A stretch of DNA of 64,000 nt from a virus. The position numbers and the translations under genes are program-made. How positions within the stretch are numbered: the stretch's first letter is position 1; every line of letters starts with the position of its first letter. Shown here piece by piece: positions 4,952-36,349 of the stretch. Below the pieces are notes generated by a model. It did no database searches and was not told where the DNA came from. It worked only from the letters and a program-made list of their open reading frames with translations. The stretch lies in IMG/VR virus record IMGVR_UViG_3300035670_010555, positions 105,855 to 169,854 of that record; one strand, written 5' to 3'.

Positions 4952-6802
4952 TTATGAATTTAATAACTTATCTAAGTGTTTTGAAATTTCTCCTAAAGAA
5001 TCTTGTGCTTGTCCCAAATTTATTACCTGAGATCCTTCAATTAAATTATTTTCCACTAATATGTTAAGGTCTTTTTTCTTTGATTCTGGTGTTACTTCAG
5101 TTGGTGGGGATTCTTCTGTTCCGCCTGCCGGTGGTAATTCTGGCTCTCCTCCAGGAATTTCTCCTCCACCACCGAATGATGGTGGTGGGCCCAATTCTTC
5201 TCCACCATCCGTAGTTGTCGCGGCTCCAGCCGTCGGAGTCGATCCTGTTTGACTACCATACAATTTGTCGATATTATCGAACAAACCTGTTTTGGTTATC
5301 ACAGTTGGAGTTGCTTTAAGTTCTTCACCAACAGCTCTTTCAATTCTTTGTTGTTGTAAGTCTAAACGAACTTCGTCATCAGACCATCCAAATATGTGTT
5401 TCTTAGCCCATGTAGATGAGGTCGCCTGAATTCCATTTCCTGGATCTGAAACTAAATCTTTATACAATAATACTTTTTCTTTCCAAACGTCAATCTTTAA
5501 CAAATCTGCTTGAGTTGATGGGTTTGTTAATCCGAGTGTAAAATTGGATAATTCATCTTCAAATCCTAATAAAAATAAATGTACGATAGCAATCTTATTC
5601 AGTTCCGCCAACATACTTTTTTGAATTCTATTTATTGTACGAGCAAATCTAATATCTTGTAACGCCAAGTTTTTACCATCACCTACCACTTCTTCAAAAC
5701 CCAAGAATGCCTTTGGTACTCGTAATGCAGTTAATAACTTTTTTTGAATATATTCAATATCGGCAATTTCAGACAAGTTAGTTGCTCCAGGTAGTGTGGT
5801 AATTGGATCTGGAGCTGCGGGGTCACGAACAGGAATAAAATAATCTTGGTCAACAGCCATTTGGTTGAATCTCATATCAACATTACCTGTCTTACTATCC
5901 ACTACTTGTTCTCTTTTGAACTTGTTTGCAACTCGTTGTACATATGCTTCAACATCGTCATCATTCATGTTTCCAACAAACACTTTGAACATTCTTCTTT
6001 CGGGAGCTCTTGACGTACGGTAAATCAACATCGCATCTTCGGAAAGTAAAAGTTGTTTCCAAATACGTCTAGCTTTTTCCAACATAGATGTTCCGTATGG
6101 TAGTTTTCTGTCATCACCTAATAATCTGAAGTGAGCAATTTCCCATGACTGAAATTCCATATTTTTATTCTTCCAAGTGAAGTGTAATGCTTTTCTGTCT
6201 TTATCAACTTCATTTTTAACATCAACAGATATTTTACCACTAGCACCAACTTCATGTCGTTCAATTTCTATGGTCGGTAATTGTTGGCATCCAACAATTC
6301 CTTTCTCAGGGTCTAATTTAAGATACACAAAATTGTCACCATATTTACAGGTGTTCCGTGTCCACATTGGAAGGTTGGTATTAACATCTAAAGCATTGTT
6401 GAACAAATCCGCTAATACCCCTTTTATTCTTTTTGATTCAGAATAAATTTGTAGAATAAATCCATCTTCATTTGTTGTTGTGGATTCTTCGGCATAAATG
6501 TCTAACGCGGCTGAAATCTCAGGAGTATATTCCATCGACTCATAATCGTATTGTGCGGACAACCTTGTTGGTTCATAGTAAATTGCCTGTGAATAAAGGT
6601 TGTTTTCTACCTTTGACCATTGATTGGTAAGGTAATATGTTTGTTGTGCTTGGAGTTTTTCTTTTTCGTATTCTTCTCTACTTTTGGTTCGCAGAAGTTC
6701 CTTTTTATCAAACTTGAATGTCGGATAGTCTTGATTGAGAAGTGAATTAGGTCCAAATGTTTGTGACAATCGTTGCCAAACTGTCATATTTTGTTCTGCC
6801 AT
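4952..6802 (-). CDS. Portal protein (gp20-like)
   Basis: EDAMLIYRTSRAPERRMFKVFVGN, DYFIPVR, ITTLPG, DIEYIQKKL..ALRVP, DIRFARTINRIQ. Confidence 0.95.
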   Translation of the reverse strand: MAEQNMTVWQRLSQTFGPNSLLNQDYPTFKFDKKELLRTKSREEYEKEKLQAQQTYYLTNQWSKVENNLYSQAIYYEPTRLSAQYDYESMEYTPEISAALDIYAEESTTTNEDGFILQIYSESKRIKGVLADLFNNALDVNTNLPMWTRNTCKYGDNFVYLKLDPEKGIVGCQQLPTIEIERHEVGASGKISVDVKNEVDKDRKALHFTWKNKNMEFQSWEIAHFRLLGDDRKLPYGTSMLEKARRIWKQLLLSEDAMLIYRTSRAPERRMFKVFVGNMNDDDVEAYVQRVANKFKREQVVDSKTGNVDMRFNQMAVDQDYFIPVRDPAAPDPITTLPGATNLSEIADIEYIQKKLLTALRVPKAFLGFEEVVGDGKNLALQDIRFARTINRIQKSMLAELNKIAIVHLFLLGFEDELSNFTLGLTNPSTQADLLKIDVWKEKVLLYKDLVSDPGNGIQATSSTWAKKHIFGWSDDEVRLDLQQQRIERAVGEELKATPTVITKTGLFDNIDKLYGSQTGSTPTAGAATTTDGGEELGPPPSFGGGGEIPGGEPELPPAGGTEESPPTEVTPESKKKDLNILVENNLIEGSQVINLGQAQDSLGEISKHLDKLLNS

Positions 6803-20246: not shown

Positions 20247-20660
20247 GGGGTAGACAGGTATCGATTGGCATTGTTGGGGATAAGTGGCACGTAGTCAGAA
20301 TTCATCTATGACTTAAATCTATGGTGAAGAAAGTAAACGGCAATACTCTTGCTAAGATGTCTGCTCTAGGTTTAACTAGAGAAGCGTCTGTTGTAACTGC
20401 TTAATTAGTTGATACAACGTCAGGTCGAATGGGCATATAACCTAGGAACAGAAGCCCTCTAAGGTGTGATACCACCCGAAGCGTATCGAAGGTCACGTTC
20501 AGAGGACTACCTTAGTATAAGTGAACTCGACACAGTTGTTGGTAACGATGTCAAAATAGGAACCAAATATTTCGGAAGGTATAACAAACCTTGACCTAAA
20601 CGTGTAGTCATTTATTGTCAAGGTGAGCAAGACCGGAGTTCGACTCTCCGCTACTCCACC
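20247..20660 (+). ncRNA. ssrA: tmRNA
   Basis: GGGGTAG...CTACTCC-A-CC acceptor with G3.U70; GGAG-TTCGACT-CTCC T arm; tag ORF 20339-20404 GNTLAKMSALGLTREASVVTA*; TACATTTG promoter at 20230; terminator about 20667-20695. Confidence 0.9.
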
Positions 20661-20903
20661 TTCAACAAAAAAGGGAGTCAATAACTCCCTTTTTTATTTT
20701 CGAACTTGACAATTAACATAAACTTAATATTTTTAATTAAAATTTTTAATACTTATCAGTAACTTCATAATATTATGAAAAAAAATTATTATAACCTTAC
20801 CACAAATAATTTTCCACAAGAAAAATAAGTTCCCGCGTATTGATTTACTCGGGATTTTTTTTTATAAATAAACAATCAAATAAATAACAAAAAAACAAAA
20901 ACA

Positions 20904-27111: not shown

Positions 27112-27112
27112 G

Positions 27113-27186
27113 TTGGGATAGGTGGACTCGAACCACCAACCTTTCGCGTATCAGACGAATGCTCTAACCAATTGAGCTATATCCCA
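27113..27186 (-). tRNA. tRNA-Ile(GAT)
   Basis: Cloverleaf, loop CT-GAT-AC. Confidence 0.9.
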
Positions 27187-27202
27187 TTATTGTAAGTAAA
27201 AG

Positions 27203-27276
27203 AGCGGGTAGTGAGATTCGAACTCACAACTTCCGACTTGGAAGGACGGCACTCTAGCCAATTGAGCTATACCCGC
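27203..27276 (-). tRNA. tRNA-Gly(TCC)
   Basis: Cloverleaf, loop CT-TCC-AA. Confidence 0.9.
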
Positions 27277-27285
27277 TTTTTTGTG

Positions 27286-27436
27286 CTGTAAGAGGTGGAT
27301 TCGAACCACCACGAGGAGATTCAACAAATAACATATCGCCGGCCGGCTGGTGGTCTACCCCCTCATATTATTTGTCTATTTCTTAATCCCCACCCCCGAG
27401 ACAGGAGGGCTTGTCTGCCAATTTCAACACCTTACA
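27286..27436 (-). ncRNA. tRNA-like RNA with GTC anticodon loop and about 80-nt variable arm
   Basis: TGTAAGG/TCTTACA acceptor, class-II-like D arm, CCCTC-CTGTCTC-GGGGG arm, long paired insert, GGTGG-TTCGAAT-CCACC T arm. Confidence 0.65.
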
Positions 27437-27441
27437 AAATG

Positions 27442-27526
27442 CAGAGAGTATTGGATTCGAACCAATGCATCCCTTTCGAGATGACAGATTAGCAATCTGC
27501 TCCTTTAACCACTCAGGCAACTCTCT
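27442..27526 (-). tRNA. tRNA-Ser(GCT)
   Basis: Cloverleaf with long variable arm. Confidence 0.9.
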
Positions 27527-27579
27527 ATTAATGTTCCAAAACTCACTTTTTTTTAATGTTTTGGACCCTGAATAACTTG

Positions 27580-27650
27580 ATGTCTCATCAGGATTCGAAC
27601 CTGAAATAACTGAACCAAAATCAGTTGTGTTACCGTTACACCATGAGACA
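27580..27650 (-). tRNA. tRNA-Gln(TTG)
   Basis: Cloverleaf, loop TT-TTG-GT. Confidence 0.88.
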
Positions 27651-27731
27651 GTTTAGACAGACCTTAGGAGACGTATTATTCTCTTCATTATCCTTGTACT
27701 TTAACACCGTGGGAAGCGTGTGTCTGTCTTG

Positions 27732-27813
27732 TGGGAACGATAGGACTCGAACCTATGAACTCCGAAGAGAGGGGTTTTACAGACCCCGGCAATTGCCGCT
27801 ATGCGACGTTCCC
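27732..27813 (-). tRNA. tRNA-Tyr(GTA)
   Basis: Cloverleaf with variable arm, loop CT-GTA-AA. Confidence 0.9.
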
Positions 27814-27952
27814 AAAATAAGGAAAGGAGAAGATGGTTCCGTGGACATCTCCTTTTACGATTGGCATTACTACGATGATTCCAAACTCCAAATGTACCAC
27901 CTCCATCATCAGGTTAACATACATTCCTTCCCCAATCAACCTTTATAACTAG

Positions 27953-28023
27953 CACACCCACCAAGACTCGAACTTGGAACAACGGTTTTGGAGACCGGTA
28001 TGATGCCATTTCACCATAGATGC
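27953..28023 (-). tRNA. tRNA-Trp(CCA)
   Basis: Cloverleaf, loop CT-CCA-AA. Confidence 0.85.
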
Positions 28024-28440
28024 TTACTTGTTCAACAACCAAGATGACGATTGAATTTTATCTCCTAGTCCATCAATTAATTTAACCCCTAACCAATCAC
28101 AAATCGGTGTCTCAGGGATGCTATTATTGTTTTGGTCTCCACCATTAGCGAATAGGAATTCGTCGTCCCTATCCCCCAAAGAATGAATCAATTCGATTGT
28201 CTTACACACAGTTCGATCTGTGTCAACTGAAAGAAATACTCTGTCAACCATTTTCAGATTTTGGATGATTAACATTCTCTCATTCTCATCTTGGAATTCT
28301 TTACTACCCTTCAACTCCCTCTGTTTGTCATTGTTGACAATGACATAGAGTTTGTCACCATGTTCTTTGGACTTATTGAAATATTCAATATGTCCCTTAT
28401 GAACAGGATTAAAATATCCGCTTACAATTACAATTTTCAT
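28024..28440 (-). CDS. Cytidylyltransferase-like (HIGH) nucleotidyltransferase
   Basis: SGYFNPVHKGH, VNND, FANGGD, KIQSSS. Confidence 0.85.
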   Translation of the reverse strand: MKIVIVSGYFNPVHKGHIEYFNKSKEHGDKLYVIVNNDKQRELKGSKEFQDENERMLIIQNLKMVDRVFLSVDTDRTVCKTIELIHSLGDRDDEFLFANGGDQNNNSIPETPICDWLGVKLIDGLGDKIQSSSWLLNK

Positions 28441-28625
28441 TTCGTTTCGTAGGTTAAAGTTTCTAATTCCAATTCACTTTCATAGAAATATGGACAAGCC
28501 CACCTAGGTTTATCACATTTAAGTTTTACCATCGATCCTCTGTAAAATCCAACCGCTACGACTGTCGCCCATCCTGAACATCTTGTTTTAACTCTATCTC
28601 CAACTTTTAATTCACTAAATGTCAT
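28437..28625 (-). CDS. Hypothetical SH3-like protein
   Basis: LKVGDRVK start, 62 aa. Confidence 0.45.
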   Translation of the reverse strand: MTFSELKVGDRVKTRCSGWATVVAVGFYRGSMVKLKCDKPRWACPYFYESELELETLTYETK

Positions 28626-28923
28626 CTTCTACGGTGTTTAATTCAAAGTTACTAAATTTTAGTCCCCACATCAAAGAAATCATAGACATTTCTCTTTCAG
28701 CCATTTTAGCATACAAACGAAGTTCTTTCATAAGGTATTTTTTACCCCACTTTTTCCATTCTTCGTTTTGTTCCATAGTCATAGTCCAATCAGTATACCA
28801 ACTATCCTTACGGTCCTTGATATCGTCATAGGTCACAGGATGACCTGCAATTTCGAACATCTTGTTTATCATATCGATAACCATTTTTTGTTTTTTCTGT
28901 TCTTTAGATAATCTTGGTTTCAT
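28615..28923 (-). CDS. Hypothetical phage protein
   Basis: 102-aa ORF. Confidence 0.55.
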   Translation of the reverse strand: MKPRLSKEQKKQKMVIDMINKMFEIAGHPVTYDDIKDRKDSWYTDWTMTMEQNEEWKKWGKKYLMKELRLYAKMAEREMSMISLMWGLKFSNFELNTVEDDI

Positions 28924-28948
28924 AATTTTCTTTGTTTATTGGTTGATG

Positions 28949-29022
28949 AGGTCAGAATCGGATTCGAACCGATGGATACTTGTTTTGCAGACAAGCCCCT
29001 TAAGCCACTTGGGTATCTGACC
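28949..29022 (-). tRNA. tRNA-Cys(GCA)
   Basis: Cloverleaf, loop CT-GCA-AA. Confidence 0.9.
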
Positions 29023-29033
29023 ATTTATAATGT

Positions 29034-29100
29034 GTCAGGACGGGTTTCTAACCCGCTCCTCAGTTAACTACTGTGTGCTGCCATTTACACCACCTGACTA
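29034..29100 (-). ncRNA. Minimal/degenerate member of the AGTCAGG tRNA-like family
   Basis: Same GTCAGG/CCTGAC acceptor; short CAGT-AGTTA-ACTG arm; T loop TTAGAAA. Confidence 0.55.
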
Positions 29101-29103
29101 TTG

Positions 29104-29175
29104 TGTGACCGAAGAGAATCGAACTCTTACCTGAAGTGCCACAAACTTCCGCCCTCCCACTAGGCTACGGCCACC
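29104..29175 (-). tRNA. tRNA-His(GTG)
   Basis: Cloverleaf, loop TT-GTG-GC, G-1 encoded. Confidence 0.85.
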
Positions 29176-29400
29176 ATATAATAATTTAGATTTCTAAAAC
29201 TCATCCTCGAAAGGGTAAAGAAACTCCATCTTATTTGTTTTTTGCGTAGTCAGGACAGGATTCGAACCTGTATTTGTGGAGCACCATCTCCAACGTCTGA
29301 ATCGAACAGAACCAATCAATCCTCTACGGGTGGTACATCTGCAGCTGTACCACTTATTCAAGAACAGCGTCTAACCAATTCCGCCACCTGACTATCCTAA

Positions 29401-29607
29401 TTATTTACCTCCTCCGTCACCATCAAGATATATCAATCTTACTGTTTCACCACTACCTATATTATGAATAGTAAAGGTAGGATATGAACCGTCTTCATTT
29501 CTTTTGTTAATAGTGTCAGTTGGCCAAATTTCAAAACCATGTTCCCAACACAGATGGTCTAATTTATCAATAAACTCATCAGTTTCTTTACTTATTTCTT
29601 TTTCCAT
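29401..29607 (-). CDS. Small hypothetical protein (cassette)
   Basis: 68 aa, AAAAGTTATG start context. Confidence 0.6.
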   Translation of the reverse strand: MEKEISKETDEFIDKLDHLCWEHGFEIWPTDTINKRNEDGSYPTFTIHNIGSGETVRLIYLDGDGGGK

Positions 29608-29616
29608 AACTTTTAA

Positions 29617-29718
29617 TTACAAAAGTCTATACCAAATCTTAATTGTCATATCTCTTTGAGGGGATGGTTTTAGTTTTGACCATCTGTCAATCCATTCTTT
29701 AATTTCTTCTTTACTCAT
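29617..29718 (-). CDS. Small hypothetical protein (33 aa)
   Basis: MSKEEIKEWIDRWSKLKPSPQRDMTIKIWYRLL, same AAAAGTTATG context. Confidence 0.5.
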   Translation of the reverse strand: MSKEEIKEWIDRWSKLKPSPQRDMTIKIWYRLL

Positions 29719-29740
29719 AACTTTTAATTTTTTCACCTGA

Positions 29741-29878
29741 CTATCCTAATTTCCACCACCTACCACATTTTTGACATTCTTGTGGTCCATATGCTTTATG
29801 CATTTTATGTTTATCTAAAACAAAATCATGTACAAATAAACACCATACGTTTCCAAATTGTCTAATAATCCATTTCAT
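29741..29878 (-). CDS. Small Cys/His protein (45 aa)
   Basis: C.FVH...C.KC; its TAG stop is the TAG of a TAGTCAGGTG repeat fragment. Confidence 0.5.
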   Translation of the reverse strand: MKWIIRQFGNVWCLFVHDFVLDKHKMHKAYGPQECQKCGRWWKLG

Positions 29879-29889
29879 ATATTTTTTAA

Positions 29890-30054
29890 TTAAAATATAA
29901 TACTTAATAAATGACCTATAAAAATACCTGTTGCTAAGGCTGATAACGATAGACTTACAAGTGTTTTTTTAGATAAATCTTTAATAAATGATGGTAGTAT
30001 CCAGCTTGATATTAATACTAACCATCCCACAATTACAGCAATTTCTATTTCCAT
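29890..30054 (-). CDS. Small 2-TM membrane protein (54 aa)
   Basis: Manual translation; AAAAGTTATG context. Confidence 0.55.
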   Translation of the reverse strand: MEIEIAVIVGWLVLISSWILPSFIKDLSKKTLVSLSLSALATGIFIGHLLSIIF

Positions 30055-30151
30055 AACTTTTATTTTTAGTTGTAGTCAGGACAGGATTCGAACCTGTGAT
30101 AGACGCTCCTTAGAGTCCGCTATCATGGCAACCAATTCCGCCACCTGACTA

Positions 30152-30464
30152 TGTTGAGAATGAGAAGTCCTCTGTGTTGTAGTGCACGATTATGTTTTCC
30201 ATAATTCAAGTAATGTCACTCATCTTTATGTCTCCTTTCTCAAGGGTACAACACATTTGTAGTCAGGACAGGATTCGAACCTGTACGAAGAGTATGTGTG
30301 TCTCTTCTCCTATGGGTTTACCTCAAGGGTTTCCACCTGCCATCGCACGTTGTAGCGTCTACCATTCCGCCACCTGACTATGTTGAGGATGAGAAGTCCT
30401 CTGTGTTGTAGAGTTTGTTTACTCTCTTATATGATAGCATTTCTTTCTCAAGGAAACAACACGT
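30152..30464 (-). ncRNA. Two copies of a putative kissing-loop RNA (30152-30256, 30381-30464)
   Basis: GTGTTGT..CCTTGAGAAAG[variable]CTACAACACAGAGGACTTCTCATYCTCAACA shared by both copies. Confidence 0.6.
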
Positions 30465-30765
30465 TGTAATGGAGTGGGTCTATTCCCCACAGTCAACAGA
30501 ACTTAAAACTTACCTACGAGAGAGAGGTATTCTGTATGATCGTTCCCATTGCCTAAACAGTGTCTAGTATGCCTTCGGTTGTCTCTCGTGTCAGTAGTCA
30601 GGACAGGATTCGAACCTGTATGCACTATTAAGGTAATGCTTTTGTATGTTTTTCAGTGTCCACTACAAGTTTCCTTAATTTTGTAGTAACTACTTTCATC
30701 CTCACATAACGTCTACCATTCCGCCACCTGACTAAATTACTTGTTTTCGATTATCAAGTTGATAG

Positions 30766-31089
30766 TTACAATTCGTAACGAGCCAATGCTGCGTCTGTGA
30801 TTTCCTTTGCTTTTTTACAAATCAACACATCTTCTGAATAAATATGATAAATTGAATCAGCTCCCAATTCGCTGAGTAATTGTGTTAACGCAACTGCGTA
30901 TAATTCAATATCGTCAGCCGTGTGAGACGAAGCAACTTCGCTTCTTGACATATTTCCGAAAACTTTAGAATGAGATCGTAAGTAATCGTGATGATATGTA
31001 TATGGAACTCGGCTTTTGCTATGTGGCAATTTATCAATTACTTCTAGAAACCGTTGAGGCAATGTACTATCTTCTTCTTTTCTGAACAT
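30766..31089 (-). CDS. Hypothetical protein
   Basis: 107-aa ORF between a repeat fragment and a full element. Confidence 0.55.
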   Translation of the reverse strand: MFRKEEDSTLPQRFLEVIDKLPHSKSRVPYTYHHDYLRSHSKVFGNMSRSEVASSHTADDIELYAVALTQLLSELGADSIYHIYSEDVLICKKAKEITDAALARYEL

Positions 31090-31133
31090 ATTTTCCCCTA
31101 TTTAGATATTACTATTTCACCACCTGACTATTT

Positions 31134-31343
31134 TTATTTTTCCAAAACGTACTTCATCATCTCTTGCATCTTGATAATCAAAAGTTCCATTTCATCCTTA
31201 TTAAGATACAACCTACCGTTTAATGTTTTATCATCCAACTCTTTGACTTCAACGATGATACCACCGAAACACTCAGTTGGATAAATTTCAACATTCTGTT
31301 CTTCGGTCGCAATAACTGTTTTGTTCCAAACTTTGTTTTTCAT
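31134..31343 (-). CDS. Hypothetical protein
   Basis: 69-aa ORF. Confidence 0.55.
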   Translation of the reverse strand: MKNKVWNKTVIATEEQNVEIYPTECFGGIIVEVKELDDKTLNGRLYLNKDEMELLIIKMQEMMKYVLEK

Positions 31344-31346
31344 AAC

Positions 31347-31616
31347 TTATTTATTTTTGAATTGTTCAAACCATTGTTCTAATGTTATCTTCTTTCCTGC
31401 TAACAAATCTTCTGTATGCTTATAAAGTATATTTAATACTTCTTCCTCGCTATACATTTTTTCTTGTTGTAATCTAGCAATGTGAATAAACATTGATTTT
31501 ATCCAAGTTTTTTCGTGAGGCTGTATTGTTTTTGCTTCTAATAACTCTAAGCTATAATTTTCAGCTGCTTCCTCAAGCTTGAATGCTTGTTCGTAAGGAA
31601 TAAATTCGGTTTTCAT
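31347..31616 (-). CDS. Hypothetical phage protein
   Basis: EFIPYEQA / LEEAAE / QEKMYSEEEV / WFEQFK. Confidence 0.6.
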   Translation of the reverse strand: MKTEFIPYEQAFKLEEAAENYSLELLEAKTIQPHEKTWIKSMFIHIARLQQEKMYSEEEVLNILYKHTEDLLAGKKITLEQWFEQFKNK

Positions 31617-31720
31617 TTCTCTTTACAGTTTAAGTTTCTCTCTTATTACTCCACTAATGTCCGAAAAAGATTTTACATCCACAAGGGATTTGTAAAATAT
31701 TTTATTTTTTTTTTTGGTAG

Positions 31721-31794
31721 TGACCCCGCCGAGATTCGAACTCGGGACTCCTTCATTAAAAGTGAAGTGCTCTAGCCAACTGAGCTACGAAGTC
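31721..31794 (-). tRNA. tRNA-Lys(TTT)
   Basis: Cloverleaf, loop CT-TTT-AA. Confidence 0.92.
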
Positions 31795-32780
31795 ATTTGT
31801 AGTCAGGACAGGATTCGAACCTGTATGTAGATTTTGTATGTACTTTTGGCTTTGAAATCATCTACTAATTTCTGTACCCTAGAATACATCGGCTGCACAG
31901 CACCATATACATACTCTCACAGCGTCTACCAATTTCGCCACCTGACTATTTTTGAAAAGATATGTGGTGTCGCTCCACTGCCTCTACAACCTAAGAATTT
32001 CGCTCAGAATAATTCCGTACTAATTCAAATTGCTAACAACACTTTTTTGAGTGTATATCCTTGTAGTCAGGACAGGATTCGAACCTGTATTGATTTACTT
32101 ATTGATTGGGTGTCAACTTAATGTCTTCCAATCAATCATCAATCTACCATTAGCTTTCGCCACCTGACTATATTAGGTTAGAGGCTGTTAACCATAAGGT
32201 CGTACGAAACATCACTTGTACTTCGTGTCAGGGAATCTCCCATACCTCTAAAGTAGTCAGGACAGGATTCGAACCTGTAATATGAAGTTATTCCCGATTA
32301 CCCTCGTTATTACCTTCATCCCTATTGAGTGGAGGGATTATATTTGACACCAATTTCGCCAACTGACTAATGTTTTTAGTTACTTTATCAACACTTCTCC
32401 AAGAACCACCTCGGCCAGTTTATATCAATTTCACTTAGGTTACGTCATGATTCTGCTGGTTAAGCGTCCTCAATCTAAACCTGTTTGTAGCCAGGACAGG
32501 TACTGCCCCTGTTGCTTGGTCTTTTGTTCACAGAGTGTCACTTATGATACTCTGTCAAACGTCACCCACGAGTTACTTTTACTCTACCTGACTATACTGT
32601 AATACCGTTTCTCTGGTTTTTACTTATGGTTTGTTCCCCATAACCTGTTGACGTGCACATCAGAGCAAGGACCTGTACAGTGTCTATCGAGCCGTTCCTC
32701 ACCTTCCAATTATGGTTGCGACCCATTCGGAAGTCGATAGTCCTTTCAGTGAAGCATTATCACCTTCTGTAGATATTACA

Positions 32781-32857
32781 TGGTACTCCGTACGGGGCTC
32801 GAACCCGTAAGCTCTCCCGTGAAAGGGGAGTGTCCTAACCAATTAGACGAACGGAGC
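32781..32857 (-). tRNA. tRNA-Glu(TTC)
   Basis: Cloverleaf, CCA encoded. Confidence 0.92.
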
Positions 32858-32862
32858 ATGTG

Positions 32863-32934
32863 AGCAGGTATCCGGATTCGAACCGAAATCTCCGGTTTGG
32901 AAGACCAGATCACTAACCGTTGTGCTATACCTGC
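32863..32934 (-). tRNA. tRNA-Gly(TCC), second copy
   Basis: Cloverleaf, loop CT-TCC-AA. Confidence 0.85.
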
Positions 32935-32950
32935 GGTTTAATCAACTATT

Positions 32951-33025
32951 TGGAGGGGAGGGAGAATTACGATATCTCGACCTATTCATTAACAGTGAAT
33001 TGCTCTACCTCTGAGCTACCTCCCC
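32951..33025 (-). tRNA. tRNA-Asn(GTT), atypical T loop
   Basis: Canonical D and anticodon arms, loop CT-GTT-AA; T loop ATCGTAA; CCA encoded. Confidence 0.75.
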
Positions 33026-33035
33026 TTCTGTCTTA

Positions 33036-33043
33036 CAAAGATA
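33036..33043 (-). promoter_or_regulatory. Bacteroidota -7 promoter element TATCTTTG upstream of tRNA-Asn
   Basis: TAnnTTTG with TTTG about 18 nt upstream. Confidence 0.6.
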
Positions 33044-33075
33044 CTACAATATTTCAAAGAACAAAAACATGTCAT

Positions 33076-33111
33076 AAAAAAACCCCAAACTTTTTTTAAG
33101 AGTTCGGGGTC
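33076..33111 (-). terminator. Attenuator terminator (3:4 hairpin)
   Basis: GACCCCGAACT-loop-AGTTTGGGGTT followed by T-tract. Confidence 0.85.
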
Positions 33112-33148
33112 TAAAAATTTAATTTAACTTAAATTAAAAAATTACTTT

Positions 33149-33238
33149 CTATGACATCCGAACTACAGGGCAAATACCTTCATACCAACATTTCTCTTGT
33201 TGACTATTACTGTTAATATGTTGACCTGTAGTTCTCAT
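33149..33238 (-). CDS. 29-aa leader peptide of putative tRNA-operon attenuator
   Basis: MRTTGQHINSNSQQEKCWYEGICPVVRMS*; overlaps hairpin segments 1 and 2. Confidence 0.75.
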   Translation of the reverse strand: MRTTGQHINSNSQQEKCWYEGICPVVRMS

Positions 33239-33296
33239 TGTATTAATAATTACTTCTAATGTATGAAATATTTTTATTTTGTCAAATGTTTTTTTG

Positions 33297-33370
33297 TATC
33301 CCCGACACGATTCGAACGTGTGACCCCAAACTTAGAAGGTTTGCGCTCTATCCAGCTGAGCTACGGAGAC
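33297..33370 (-). tRNA. tRNA-Arg(TCT)
   Basis: Cloverleaf, loop CT-TCT-AA. Confidence 0.92.
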
Positions 33371-33378
33371 AAATTAAA

Positions 33379-33543
33379 TTACTTCAATAAATCAATCTTT
33401 TTAGCAACTTCTTCGGCTTCTGCCATAATCCTGTCTGCATCTGTTCTGCTGAAATGAGAAACTTTATATGCGTTCTCCATCAACGTCTTATAAGTTTCCT
33501 GTAGTTTTTCTTTTTCTGTTTTCTTCTTAAATAATCCGAACAT
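33379..33543 (-). CDS. Lacal_2735-like small protein
   Basis: MFGLFKKKTEKEKLQETYKTLMENAYKVSH.SRTDAD...AEAE, flavobacterial family pattern. Confidence 0.7.
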   Translation of the reverse strand: MFGLFKKKTEKEKLQETYKTLMENAYKVSHFSRTDADRIMAEAEEVAKKIDLLK

Positions 33544-33581
33544 AATATGTGAATAACACTATCGTCTTTGAAAGTTTTTAT

Positions 33582-33833
33582 TTAATCTTTATGCCTTGCG
33601 GCGTTCAATCTACTTTCAAGTTTATCAAGTCGTGAATCAATTGTTCGATAAACATCATCAACAATTCTATCACGATCTCTCATTTGATTTTCAATTTCTC
33701 TTGCGAGAAACTGTTCTATTTGTTTAATTTCTTCCTTCTGTTTATTCACTCTAACAAAAGCAATAACCGCAACCACTGCCACAGCAATGACCACAACTAT
33801 AGACATTCCTAAAATAAATGATACTAAATCCAT
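33582..33833 (-). CDS. Membrane-anchored coiled-coil protein
   Basis: N-terminal TM, IDSRLDKLE. Confidence 0.6.
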   Translation of the reverse strand: MDLVSFILGMSIVVVIAVAVVAVIAFVRVNKQKEEIKQIEQFLAREIENQMRDRDRIVDDVYRTIDSRLDKLESRLNAARHKD

Positions 33834-33871
33834 ATAATCCTCTCCTTTATTTCAAAGAACGATAGTGTTTG

Positions 33872-33953
33872 TATCAGGAGAGGGAATCGAACCCTCACGG
33901 CCTAAGCCACAAGATTTTAAGTCTTGCGTGTCTACCTGTTTCACCACCCCGAC
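33872..33953 (-). tRNA. tRNA-Leu(TAA)
   Basis: Cloverleaf with variable arm. Confidence 0.9.
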
Positions 33954-33979
33954 ATTGTTTAACAAATATAATAAAAGTT

Positions 33980-34630
33980 TTAGATAATTTGTACTCGATG
34001 ATTCATTATTTCACAATATTTTTCATCGATTTCATAACTAATAGAATTGAATCCCAACTCTTGAGCAACCTTACTTGTTGTTCCACTTCCACCGAACACA
34101 TCAATAATTGTTTGATTTGGTTGTGCGGTTGTTAAAATAATTCTTCGAATTACTTCCTCAGGAATTTGACAAGGGTGTTCGGTTTTTTCCTTGCTAACAT
34201 TTTTGACTTGGTTGATTTCCCACCAATCATAAAGTTTGGCGCCAGTCTTTCCTTCGGCAATTCTTTTTTGAATACGTTTGTCTTTGAGATTTTTATATTC
34301 CTGTCTGACTTTCCTGAAGTCAGGCTTACAACCCCACCATGATATCAATCGACTTTGTTTTCCTGTGTTGGAGTTATACACCCAACAAACAACCTGTTCA
34401 CATTTGGCGTTGATTGCCTTTGGTAACAAGTTGATTGTTTCTTCGGGGTAATGAATAATGACACAAGGTGTTGGGATTTTGGATAATAATTCGATATAAT
34501 CCTGTTCGCTTAGTTTGTCTTTATATTCGTTGTAAGAATATTCTTGATTATAGGGTGGGTCGGTTATTGTTAATCCTGTTGGTATGTCGCAGTTTCTAAA
34601 ATCTTCGTTGATAATTGTTGTTTCCACCAT
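33980..34630 (-). CDS. DNA N4/N6 methyltransferase (beta class)
   Basis: TDPPYN, HPCQIP, DVFGGSGTT. Confidence 0.88.
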   Translation of the reverse strand: MVETTIINEDFRNCDIPTGLTITDPPYNQEYSYNEYKDKLSEQDYIELLSKIPTPCVIIHYPEETINLLPKAINAKCEQVVCWVYNSNTGKQSRLISWWGCKPDFRKVRQEYKNLKDKRIQKRIAEGKTGAKLYDWWEINQVKNVSKEKTEHPCQIPEEVIRRIILTTAQPNQTIIDVFGGSGTTSKVAQELGFNSISYEIDEKYCEIMNHRVQII

Positions 34631-34647
34631 AAATTTAATAAATCATT

Positions 34648-35346
34648 CTAAAATTCTTCTTCCCACAGTGTGTTGGATCTAGACTCTTCAATGTTGTATG
34701 CGTGTGATAATATAACATATTTTTTGTCAAAGTAAAATTGGAATTCTCCTTGAGATCCTTCATTTATTTCCCAACCTCCGAAGTTTTCTTCCAATTGTTG
34801 ATAACACCATTCTTCTATTTCGGATGGTACAGGTTGACCACTCTCAAAATTCGATTCGATGTATCCACTATCTCCCCCTCCATTATACTTCAAGACCAAA
34901 TAATCGTCTTCAGGAATTTCGGTCTCATCGAAAACTCCTTTTTCTTCCCACTCTTCAATCATATCATCGTATTCAACACCTTGTGAACCTCCCTCAGTTT
35001 GATAACTATACGTGTGAGTTAAAGAGATTTCTTTTTTAACACTATCAATCGTTATTTCGAATCCTTGATAATCGATGTAACCATCATTAGGTAACTCGCT
35101 ATATAATTCATCATCATCAACATAACTGATAATTTTTTTCAATATTGGTACAAGGCCGTCTGGAATTTCTGCGGTATAATTATTCTCAAAATGAGTTGGA
35201 AAATAATTTTCCCTGTATGAAATTTCTTCGTCGTCCGGTTCCATTTCAAATTGAATGTCTCCGTATGTCATTCCCAATGAAGCAAGATATCTCGAAACTT
35301 TACCTAAATATTTTTTTTCTTCTGGTGTTAATATATTTTGTGCCAT
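34648..35346 (-). CDS. DUF6878-like protein
   Basis: YNGGGDSG...GWEINEGSQG. Confidence 0.6.
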   Translation of the reverse strand: MAQNILTPEEKKYLGKVSRYLASLGMTYGDIQFEMEPDDEEISYRENYFPTHFENNYTAEIPDGLVPILKKIISYVDDDELYSELPNDGYIDYQGFEITIDSVKKEISLTHTYSYQTEGGSQGVEYDDMIEEWEEKGVFDETEIPEDDYLVLKYNGGGDSGYIESNFESGQPVPSEIEEWCYQQLEENFGGWEINEGSQGEFQFYFDKKYVILSHAYNIEESRSNTLWEEEF

Positions 35347-35357
35347 ACAAATAAATA

Positions 35358-35711
35358 TCAGTCTTCGAATTCTAATTTAATGGTCTTCAACATCCACTGA
35401 GGTCTTTGACTAGACGCAACATTATTAACCCATTCTTTAGCTGATGGAATGTAGTTATTACAATCTTCCTTGACATGTTGTTCACCGACATAACGGGTAT
35501 AAACTGTTTTCCCATCTGAGTTTTTGAATTCGGTACCAAATCTTTTTTCCATTTCAAATATTCCCTCACTATGGTGTCTAAACATTCTATGTAAGGAATC
35601 ACCAAACCATGACTTGGTTTCGTCTAACCATTCATGTAAATGAATGTAGTCCTCAGGTTTTCCACCAAACTTTTTGGCGGATGATTTTGCATGTAAGTTC
35701 GGATGTGCCAT
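35358..35711 (-). CDS. DUF6915-like protein
   Basis: MAHP..HA.SS..KFGG..EDY..LH.W.D, HR..RHHSEG, EQHV.ED. Confidence 0.7.
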   Translation of the reverse strand: MAHPNLHAKSSAKKFGGKPEDYIHLHEWLDETKSWFGDSLHRMFRHHSEGIFEMEKRFGTEFKNSDGKTVYTRYVGEQHVKEDCNNYIPSAKEWVNNVASSQRPQWMLKTIKLEFED

Positions 35712-35922
35712 TATGATTTAATTTGTGAAAAAAGATTGTAACGTCTGTACGGTTTGTTTCCCATCTACTCCTTTATACGAGTTTCAAAGGTTACCATTTC
35801 ATTCTTAGCGTCCGTTCCGTCATTCTTTCGAATCGTTACAATCTGTTTGTAAAAAAACACCCTATGTGTATAGTACCCTCACTTCCGGTTCCCAATCGAG
35901 TCCCTTCGTCATAGGGTGTTTG

Positions 35923-36007
35923 CAGAGGAGGAGGGATTCGAACCCCCGTTACCTTTCAGTAAAACGCTTTTCAAGAGCGCCGCGTTCAACCACTCTGCCA
36001 CTCCTCT
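35923..36007 (-). tRNA. tRNA-Ser(TGA)
   Basis: Cloverleaf with long variable arm. Confidence 0.92.
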
Positions 36008-36183
36008 AATTAAACCTAACATAATCAAATCGTCATTTGAATAGAGGTTAGGGGTGTGATTTTAGCTTATGCCTTGGGCTATTCACTTATCACGATACGA
36101 CCTCTGTGTTGTTCTTATGGTTAACATCGAGGTACAGACTTACCCTGGTACGCTGTTCTTATGGGTAGCGTGATAAGTACTGT

Positions 36184-36258
36184 TGGAGCTCCTATTCGGA
36201 ATCGAACCAAATTATCATGATTACAAGTCATGCGCATCGCCAGCAATGCTTTAGGAGC
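36184..36258 (-). tRNA. tRNA-Thr(TGT)
   Basis: Cloverleaf, CCA encoded. Confidence 0.85.
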
Positions 36259-36275
36259 TTATTATTAAATATCTG

Positions 36276-36349
36276 TGGGCCTGGTAGGAATCGAACCTAC
36301 TACCTTCACATTATGAGTGTGCCGCTCTAACCGAGTGAGCTACAGGCCC
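36276..36349 (-). tRNA. tRNA with CAT anticodon (Ile2 or elongator Met)
   Basis: Cloverleaf, loop CT-CAT-AA, GGGCCTG acceptor. Confidence 0.88.

Follow-up and report, generated by a model that had tools for sequence, protein, structure and literature searches.

Phages T5 and T4 encode stable RNAs that are the closest described counterparts of the genes reported here. In T5, RNA1 and RNA2 (misc_RNA T5s03 and T5s06 of NC_005859) are annotated as 'tRNA-like stable RNA with unknown functions' and are encoded on the tRNA strand of the phage tRNA island, where tRNAs, micro-open reading frames (micro-ORFs), other stable RNAs and HNH homing endonuclease genes surround them. When folded, T5 RNA1 forms an acceptor stem, a D arm of the Leu type (GCCG-GAAUUGGUAGA-CGGG) and a T arm, and about 80 nt occupy the place of its anticodon and variable region. 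In T4, the stable RNAs rnaC (species 1, 139 nt) and rnaD (species 2, 119 nt), whose function is given as unknown in the record, directly follow tRNA-Arg next to the segB homing endonuclease gene, and rnaC has a large, structured interior together with a perfect T arm (CCGGG-UUCGAAU-CCCGG) close to the 3' end. Among engineered systems, polycistronic tRNA-guide RNA arrays use tRNA processing to obtain defined ends and stability, and Ponchon and Dardel reportedly designed tRNA scaffolds for recombinant RNA in which the cargo sits at the anticodon-arm position. Here we describe an array of tRNA-Leu-like RNA genes without an anticodon arm in the last 64 kb (positions 105,855 to 169,854; hereafter the window) of the 169,854-bp virus record IMGVR_UViG_3300035670_010555, a freshwater jumbo-phage fragment with a CheckV completeness of 56%. 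Each gene consists of a shared tRNA-like frame, which we call the chassis, around an interior of its own.

The T arm and acceptor end of the chassis form a 24-mer, ACAGGTTCGAATCCTGTCCTGACT, that occurs seven times in the window, always on the minus strand, and in none of 100 shuffles. With at most one mismatch, the 5' end TAGTCAGGTGG is present in 11 copies against 0.6 expected. Reading and folding the minus strand yielded nine units within 29034-32594, eight of them full (79-149 nt) and one degenerate (67 nt). Full units have a 7-bp acceptor stem, AGUCAGG/CCUGACU, followed by U8, and their 3' side closes with A73-C74. Seven of the nine carry the T arm ACAGG-UUCGAAU-CCUGU and most carry a Leu-type D arm, which is altered in the units at 30072-30150 and 32063-32169. 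Between D and T arms lie interiors of about 19-100 nt that are mutually unrelated. The array sits inside an island of 17 ordinary tRNAs called by ARAGORN on the same strand (27112-36349), and no terminator-like site was found inside it on the minus strand between 29000 and 32700. These results establish that the array of anticodon-less tRNA-Leu-like scaffolds proposed in the first-pass annotation is real, and the four hairpins quoted there are all present in the folded units. Its claim of shared ends holds for the seven identical 24-mers but not for the unit at 29034-29100, which is degenerate, nor for the T arm of the unit at 32487-32593, which has diverged. Similarly, the near-identical 5' ends do recur, but what relatives keep truly constant on the 5' side amounts to only about 10 nt, as the D arm varies along with the insert.

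The degenerate minimal chassis (29034-29100, 67 nt; all units are on the minus strand) lies between tRNA-His and tRNA-Cys, begins with TAGTCAGGTGG and has a 6-bp acceptor stem and the T loop UUAGAAA. Chassis RNA 1 (29246-29393, 148 nt including A73-C74) has an interior of about 100 nt with a GUGGUACA/UGUACCAC hairpin and insert relatives in L082 and L197, L-numbers being the labels of related loci, of which there are 205 (1.88 Mb in all). Chassis RNA 2 (30072-30150, 79 nt) combines a short interior with the altered D arm and has an insert relative in L060. It is matched locally by the Rfam tRNA model at 31.9 bits, as is chassis RNA 4 (30594-30733, 140 nt) at 34.1 bits, whereas in chassis RNA 3 (30259-30379, 121 nt), which contains a GAAGAG/CUCUUC hairpin and scores 37.1 bits, 61 nt are skipped at the place of the anticodon arm. 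Chassis RNA 5 (31799-31947, 149 nt) lies 4 nt downstream of tRNA-Lys. Chassis RNA 6 (32063-32169, 107 nt) contains a AUUGAUUGG/CCAAUCAAU hairpin; chassis RNA 7 (32253-32368, 116 nt), at 20.8 bits, has a G7-to-U change in its 5' acceptor strand; and in chassis RNA 8 (32487-32593, 107 nt), U3 and G70 form a wobble pair and the diverged T arm reads ACAGG-GGCAGUA-CCUGU.

Standard tRNA searches largely pass these genes by. ARAGORN called none of the nine units in the window as a tRNA, and the Rfam tRNA model (RF00005, gathering score 29) matched four, three of them above the gathering score; these matches are local only and skip the anticodon arm, and the other five units were not reported. What is kept of a tRNA is the 7-bp acceptor stem, a D arm with G18-G19 and a T arm with a UUCRANY loop. 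Across 180 family members, a canonical anticodon arm (5-bp stem and 7-nt loop with U33 and R37 at the canonical start position) was present in one element, compared with 1.9 +/- 1.3 in shuffled interiors, which is the level of chance. When forced, ARAGORN called 42 of 216 family elements as tRNAs, with scattered anticodons and many non-canonical loops. Since no anticodon-loop mimic is retained, the earlier suggestion that the RNAs are decoys for anticodon nucleases is unlikely. One 70-nt element on the minus strand of L036 looks like a true tRNA-Lys(UUU), with the matching anticodon arm (loop CUUUUAA), a class I D arm, the AGUCAGG acceptor stem and a T arm changed at one loop position (UUCGAUU); the chassis is therefore able to frame a real tRNA body.

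The pattern of variation in the chassis is that of a folded RNA. Of the 180 elements, 156 retain the D stem, using about 40 different stem sequences (for example GCG/CGC, GUGU/ACAC, GCUU/AAGC and ACUC/GAGU), compared with 122 +/- 7 when 3' strands are swapped between elements; a normal D arm is absent from about 13% of the family. Compensatory T-stem variants are found in L110, L016 and L119, and rarer forms of the chassis have doubly compensated acceptor stems (AGCCAAG/CTTGGCT, GACCGAG/CTTGGTC and AACCGAG/CTCGGTT), which means that the uniformity of AGUCAGG is partly a search artefact. We conclude that the chassis is selected as RNA. Its resemblance is to class II bacterial tRNA-Leu (RF00005), with an identical D arm, a near-identical T arm and A73; it differs from that class in its acceptor sequence and in having no anticodon arm. 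For the tRNA-Leu(CAA) of a Chitinophagaceae metagenome-assembled genome (MAG), the D arm is the same and the T arm agrees at 15 of 17 positions, and both RNAs have A73 followed by C, which in the tRNA-Leu(CAA) is followed by A. The phage's own tRNA-Leu(UAA) is normal, with ends unlike those of the chassis. Leucyl-tRNA synthetase (LeuRS) of Aquifex relies on A73 and on a core of U8-A14, G18-U55 and G19-C56; the anticodon arm is dispensable for charging, and how the variable arm is oriented matters (PMC2377443). Within the family, A73 is kept in 93% of elements and U8 in about 97%, together with GG-containing D loops and the UUCGAAU T loop. The counterpart of the variable arm, the interior, is different in every element, and leucylation of the chassis is a possibility raised by the sequence.

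Flanking positions resemble those of precursor tRNAs. Across the family, the leader has U-1 in 82%, A-2 in 69% and A-4 in 69% of elements, and the trailer consists of A73 (93%; G in 7%), C74 (97%) and then a run rich in A; CCA is not encoded. The real tRNAs of the window mostly have the same kind of trailer (N73-C-A/U), tRNA-Glu being an exception that encodes CCA. In 98 of 99 cases an element and its nearest ordinary tRNA share a strand, at a median distance of 312 nt. From the pre-tRNA-like flanks, this co-orientation and the lack of a terminator in the array, we infer that the elements are probably co-transcribed with tRNAs and excised by RNase P and the tRNA 3' pathway. At 88 of 134 loci, an element is present without any other tRNA nearby, so the family is independent of tRNA islands. 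A promoter of their own is not general, as just 19 of 182 elements have a -7 box of the Bacteroidota type (TAnnTTTG) in the 45 nt upstream of them. In one syntenic group of eight loci (L047, L065, L071, L090, L097, L100, L107 and L118), the element is preceded by TAGTATATTTGCAT, a -7 box of this type 4 nt before +1; owing to this placement, these copies may be primary transcripts that would not need RNase P.

The family reaches far beyond the window. An exact scan of IMG/VR found the 24-mer in at least 120 stretches, in agreement with the expectation that the ends are conserved across phages. The G73 variant, 7% of the sampled elements, by itself accounts for 117 IMG/VR stretches, and by extrapolation the whole family probably numbers about 1000 stretches or more. 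A search of 185,579 prokaryote species genomes found the 24-mer in only 14 contigs and on no real bacterial chromosome. All 14 belong to MAGs, of mixed taxonomy and mostly of lake or river origin, and their interiors were again unrelated; given this distribution, we rejected a host tRNA as the source of the 24-mer. Related contigs were binned from Lake Mendota and the Experimental Lakes Area. No record among 50,697 isolate phage records contained both chassis ends by blastn. The 205 loci hold 364 distinct elements, of which 358 are unique in sequence, and their interiors (median 52 nt, range 16-140) form 266 clusters, including 212 singletons. A single contig can carry up to 10 elements (L010). 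Some MAG bins and the -7 promoter box, although the latter is present at only about 10% of elements, suggest Bacteroidota as hosts.

Comparison with T5 and T4 shows a likeness in kind. The T arm of T5 RNA2, GCAGGUUCGAAUCCUGU, is identical to that of the chassis at 16 of 17 positions. By contrast, the acceptor sequences differ, the T5 RNAs are single copies for which neither a shared chassis nor cargo exchange has been described, and their stability is given by the depositors' annotation. In T4 rnaC, acceptor pairing is imperfect and a Leu-type D arm is not evident; the fold of rnaD has no tRNA features, and the Rfam tRNA model matched neither RNA. Blastn against the 50,697 phage records gave no sequence homology of the family to the T5 or T4 members, only short tRNA-arm matches. 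Transfer-messenger RNA (tmRNA) and YrlA likewise join a mimic of the tRNA top half to another RNA domain. Unlike tmRNA, the chassis has no G3:U70 pair and no tag reading frame, and YrlA differs in its permuted topology. Against the YrlA/Y RNA model (RF02553, gathering score 69) the units of the window scored only 17.6-22.2 bits, and the 170 kb record has no Ro/TROVE gene. The skipping-rope, DUF2693-FD and salivarius-1 tRNA mimics are RNAs different from the chassis family. A full-text literature search returned no description of the family, that is, of a shared chassis with interior exchange. The kind is thus already known from T5 RNA1 and RNA2 and T4 rnaC, and we could not find a previous description of a common chassis in very many phages with cassette-like exchange.

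Interiors turn over within conserved surroundings. In the eight loci of the syntenic group, exactly 189 nt separate the element from the gene before it and 32 nt from the gene after it; with flanks of 87-95% identity, the group nevertheless contains five unrelated interiors (89, 92, 96, 109 and 132 nt). L010 and L030 have flanks of 99-100% identity and a private end, CCTGACG, common to both, but are wholly different from position 11 to the T stem (45 versus 95 nt). The first-pass annotation had proposed comparing inserts between close relatives, and unrelated inserts in flanks of 87-100% identity are what this comparison revealed. The converse is also seen: L040 and L089 contain the 32063-32169 module of the window at 91-94% identity, and the homology stops where the element does. 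Of all pairs of elements with the same interior, flank homology is missing in 119, limited to one flank in 12 and present on both sides in 10; where both flanks are homologous, 21 pairs differ in the interior and 10 share it. L174 and L180, and likewise L196 and L216, have backgrounds that are about 100% identical and differ by a 33-nt D-loop hairpin or a 19-nt block, which points to fast indel dynamics or population heterogeneity. Homing endonuclease genes lie near elements (phrog_314 in 12 loci, T5orf172 in 9), as they do in the tRNA clusters of T4 and T5, and a plausible route of exchange would be double-strand-break repair via short homologies.

Despite this turnover, the interiors bear marks of structure. 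Compared with dinucleotide shuffles, 149 interiors fold slightly better, with a mean z of -0.56 (p ~6e-11). In one interior family of five members, four of 33 predicted pairs have changed on both sides and still pair, and over 24 interior families there are 14 compensatory pairs compared with 3.2 in column-shuffled controls, and 30 broken cells compared with 49. These results show that structural selection acts on the interiors. The constant-frame, variable-middle organization that had been called CRISPR-like is correct as a description, but the likeness is one of analogy, as the unit is a folded tRNA-like gene and not a repeat-spacer. Interiors had no match in the phage genome and none in 1.26 Mb of related loci other than to other elements; on this basis we rejected a spacer-like origin, cas genes not having been searched for. 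No protein cluster was present in more than 17 of 135 loci, the top one being DUF932, followed by terminase, homing endonucleases and proteins without assignment.

We favor, at about even chances, the explanation that the family is a naturally occurring tRNA chassis, excised by tRNA-processing enzymes, for structured RNAs that can be exchanged. The chassis, derived from tRNA-Leu with its acceptor stem, Leu-type D arm, T arm and A73, is non-decoding. It would be transcribed jointly with phage tRNAs; host RNase P would cut the 5' end and the tRNA 3'-end/CCA pathway would most likely handle the 3' end. The chassis would thereby supply precise ends, an L-shaped fold and stability to a structured RNA, the cargo, in place of the anticodon and variable arms, and phages would exchange cargoes through recombination at or within the constant ends and in this way share a large pool of them. 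Of the ideas offered by the first-pass annotation, that of a carrier fits best with the folding, the compensatory changes and the pre-tRNA-like flanks. Expression, processing, stability, possible leucylation and the cargo as the functional part are putative. Like the engineered scaffolds, the chassis holds its insert at the anticodon-arm position; those are artificial, whereas the chassis is natural and its stabilizing effect putative. Turnover of the cargoes suggests a role in phage-host or phage-phage conflict. A broader proposal, which we put forward tentatively and regard as possible rather than probable, is that lake and river phages share a modular RNA library in which one chassis, possibly CCA-tailed and leucylated, displays hundreds of aptamer-like or regulatory domains for host takeover or counter-defence, traded between unrelated phages at the constant ends.

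Several observations weigh against a carrier of functional cargoes. The 24-mer was the search key, so its invariance is partly a matter of ascertainment. The folding z-scores are of modest size, and for 26% of interiors the fold is no better than that of shuffles; interior families are small (3-6 sequences), which makes the covariation statistics thin; and some interiors, at just about 16-25 nt, offer little room for cargo. Rfam searches with the interiors of the window and of six other arrays returned no family, only local tRNA matches and the freshwater-1 RNA, and no k-mer is shared by more than about 18% of 152 cargo types. Antisense targeting within the phage's own genome is also unsupported: searches of its 169.8 kb gave only chance matches of 11-14 nt (E at least 0.05). 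Finally, the exchange of interiors could be neutral shuffling at repeated sequences.

The main alternative, which we consider unlikely, places the function in the chassis itself. The RNAs would be tRNA-Leu mimics charged by LeuRS, or would bind or soak up a factor that recognizes the upper half of a tRNA (possibly the CCA-adding enzyme, EF-Tu, the L/F-transferase or defence toxins that modify or cleave tRNA acceptor ends), and the interior would be a tolerated or modulating spacer. The ends are indeed much more conserved than the interiors, every LeuRS determinant reported for Aquifex is retained (PMC2377443), and arrays of 7-10 copies would raise the dose. This alternative leaves unexplained both the compensatory evolution inside interiors and the persistence of the same interior in unrelated phages. 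Furthermore, the variable-arm orientation important for Aquifex LeuRS is not kept in the family, the elements without a normal D arm would be anomalous, and no partner protein co-occurs with the elements.

A second alternative, similarly unlikely in our view but still in contention, is that the elements act as punctuation and recombination linkers. The chassis ends would then be RNase P and RNase Z sites that release the RNAs and mini-mRNAs lying between elements, the repeated ends would serve as homology patches and the interiors would be mostly passengers. Structured RNAs do lie exactly between elements. Two copies of an RNA that we call motif X (30152-30258, which has an 88% match in L016, and 30381-30464, both on the minus strand) abut the 5' ends of chassis RNAs 2 and 3, respectively, and a freshwater-1 RNA (RF02979; 32618-32679, minus strand; 70 bits, E 2.5e-15, gathering score 72) lies just 5' of chassis RNA 8. 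In addition, two 5'-only chassis fragments on the minus strand precede small open reading frames (ORFs): TAGTCAGGTGA at 29733-29743, which shares TTAGGATAGTCAGGTG with the start of chassis RNA 1 and is directly upstream of a small ORF, and a fragment at 31120-31130, upstream of a 107-aa ORF (30766-31089). Elsewhere, single elements fit tightly into operons, 8-10 nt after DUF932 genes or at the fixed spacing between conserved genes described above, and both the homology breaks at element ends and the recurrent homing endonuclease genes nearby are in keeping with linkers. There is also a precedent in the PeSL cassettes of T4-type phages, in which repeated conserved short motifs surround small variable modules and form the breakpoints of shuffling between close relatives (PMC2839356, PMC4122927). 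PeSLs, however, are promoter-terminator stem-loops and are not tRNA-shaped, and in the chassis family the variable part is inside the repeated unit as well as between units. For punctuation, an ordinary tRNA or a bare minihelix would suffice, so that a kept, structured and covarying interior is unexplained, as are the loci that have an element but no other tRNA nearby; moreover, for recombination, 10 and 24 nt are very short stretches of homology. The carrier, chassis-centred and punctuation explanations are not mutually exclusive.

It is very improbable that the elements are selfish tRNA-derived mobile DNA of the short interspersed element (SINE) or miniature inverted-repeat transposable element (MITE) type, with ends kept for mobilization: the acceptor strands do form inverted-repeat ends, some contigs carry many copies (10 in L010) and identical modules occur in unrelated contexts, but the interiors of copies in one genome are unrelated to each other, which is not so in MITE families, covarying D, T and acceptor stems speak for an RNA function, all eight loci of the one syntenic group carry the element at the orthologous position, and no transposase or integrase is associated. 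We rejected as hardly credible the idea that these are ordinary tRNA-Leu genes, decaying or spliced from an intron-bearing precursor to a decoding tRNA, which the Leu-type D arm, the location in a tRNA island, the forced ARAGORN calls and the clean tRNA-Lys(UUU) arm of L036 would favor, since no anticodon stem above chance flanks the interiors, the ARAGORN anticodons are scattered with often non-canonical loops, conservation of ends over probably more than 1000 contigs is incompatible with decay, and the phage already has a normal tRNA-Leu(UAA) with different ends.

Other RNAs and genes accompany the array. Motif X is a second RNA with constant ends and a variable middle (GUGUUGU-CCCUUGAGAAAGG and ACAACACAGAGGACUUCUCAUCCUCAA). 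Its 20-mer is present in at least 118 IMG/VR stretches, and among 86 distinct copies an AGTCAGG chassis follows within 30 nt in 36 and an ordinary tRNA in 12. Freshwater-1 also occurs at 4124-4186 of L016, making two unrelated contigs in all; its location inside tRNA/tRNA-like islands of both suggests that the orphan motif belongs to phages and that its RNA is processed along with tRNAs. Between tRNA-Gly and tRNA-Ser of the window (27287-27436, minus strand) lies an uncalled 150-nt tRNA-like gene on a different chassis (TGTAAGG/TCTTACA with G73), with the loop CUGUCUC at the place of an Asp-like GUC anticodon and a conserved extra arm of about 90 nt; it has homologues of 156 nt in L080 and 175 nt in L043, and an Rfam search with it gave no match. 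A tmRNA (73 bits by Rfam) is encoded at 20247-20661 on the plus strand, opposite to the tRNA island, and the chassis-bearing contig L068 also has a tmRNA, at 5724-6218. Within the tRNA island, directly 5' of tRNA-Trp, is a cytidylyltransferase-like ORF (28024-28440, minus strand; PF01467, E 6e-13). Micro-ORFs in the array matched no protein family. Searches of the record for PolyA_pol/CCA enzyme, RtcB and TROVE genes found none, and one RNA_ligase-family ORF was found; missing tRNA-repair or processing genes prove little in a record that is only 56% complete.

The family shows that the tRNA-like stable RNA kind known from T5 and T4 is widespread, at least in freshwater phages, and that one chassis is common to very different phages. 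Within it, the replacement of the anticodon arm is both structurally selected and exchanged like a cassette. Natural cargo variants in near-identical phage backgrounds, a defined chassis, and T5 RNA1 and RNA2 as a laboratory model make function testable. If the cargoes are functional, they would represent a large uncatalogued class of phage small RNAs that annotation has missed because tRNA finders reject the genes and Rfam has no model for them. Should phages of lakes and rivers in fact share such a library, it would parallel, at the RNA level, the cassettes of accessory genes and provide engineered tRNA scaffolds with a precedent in nature.

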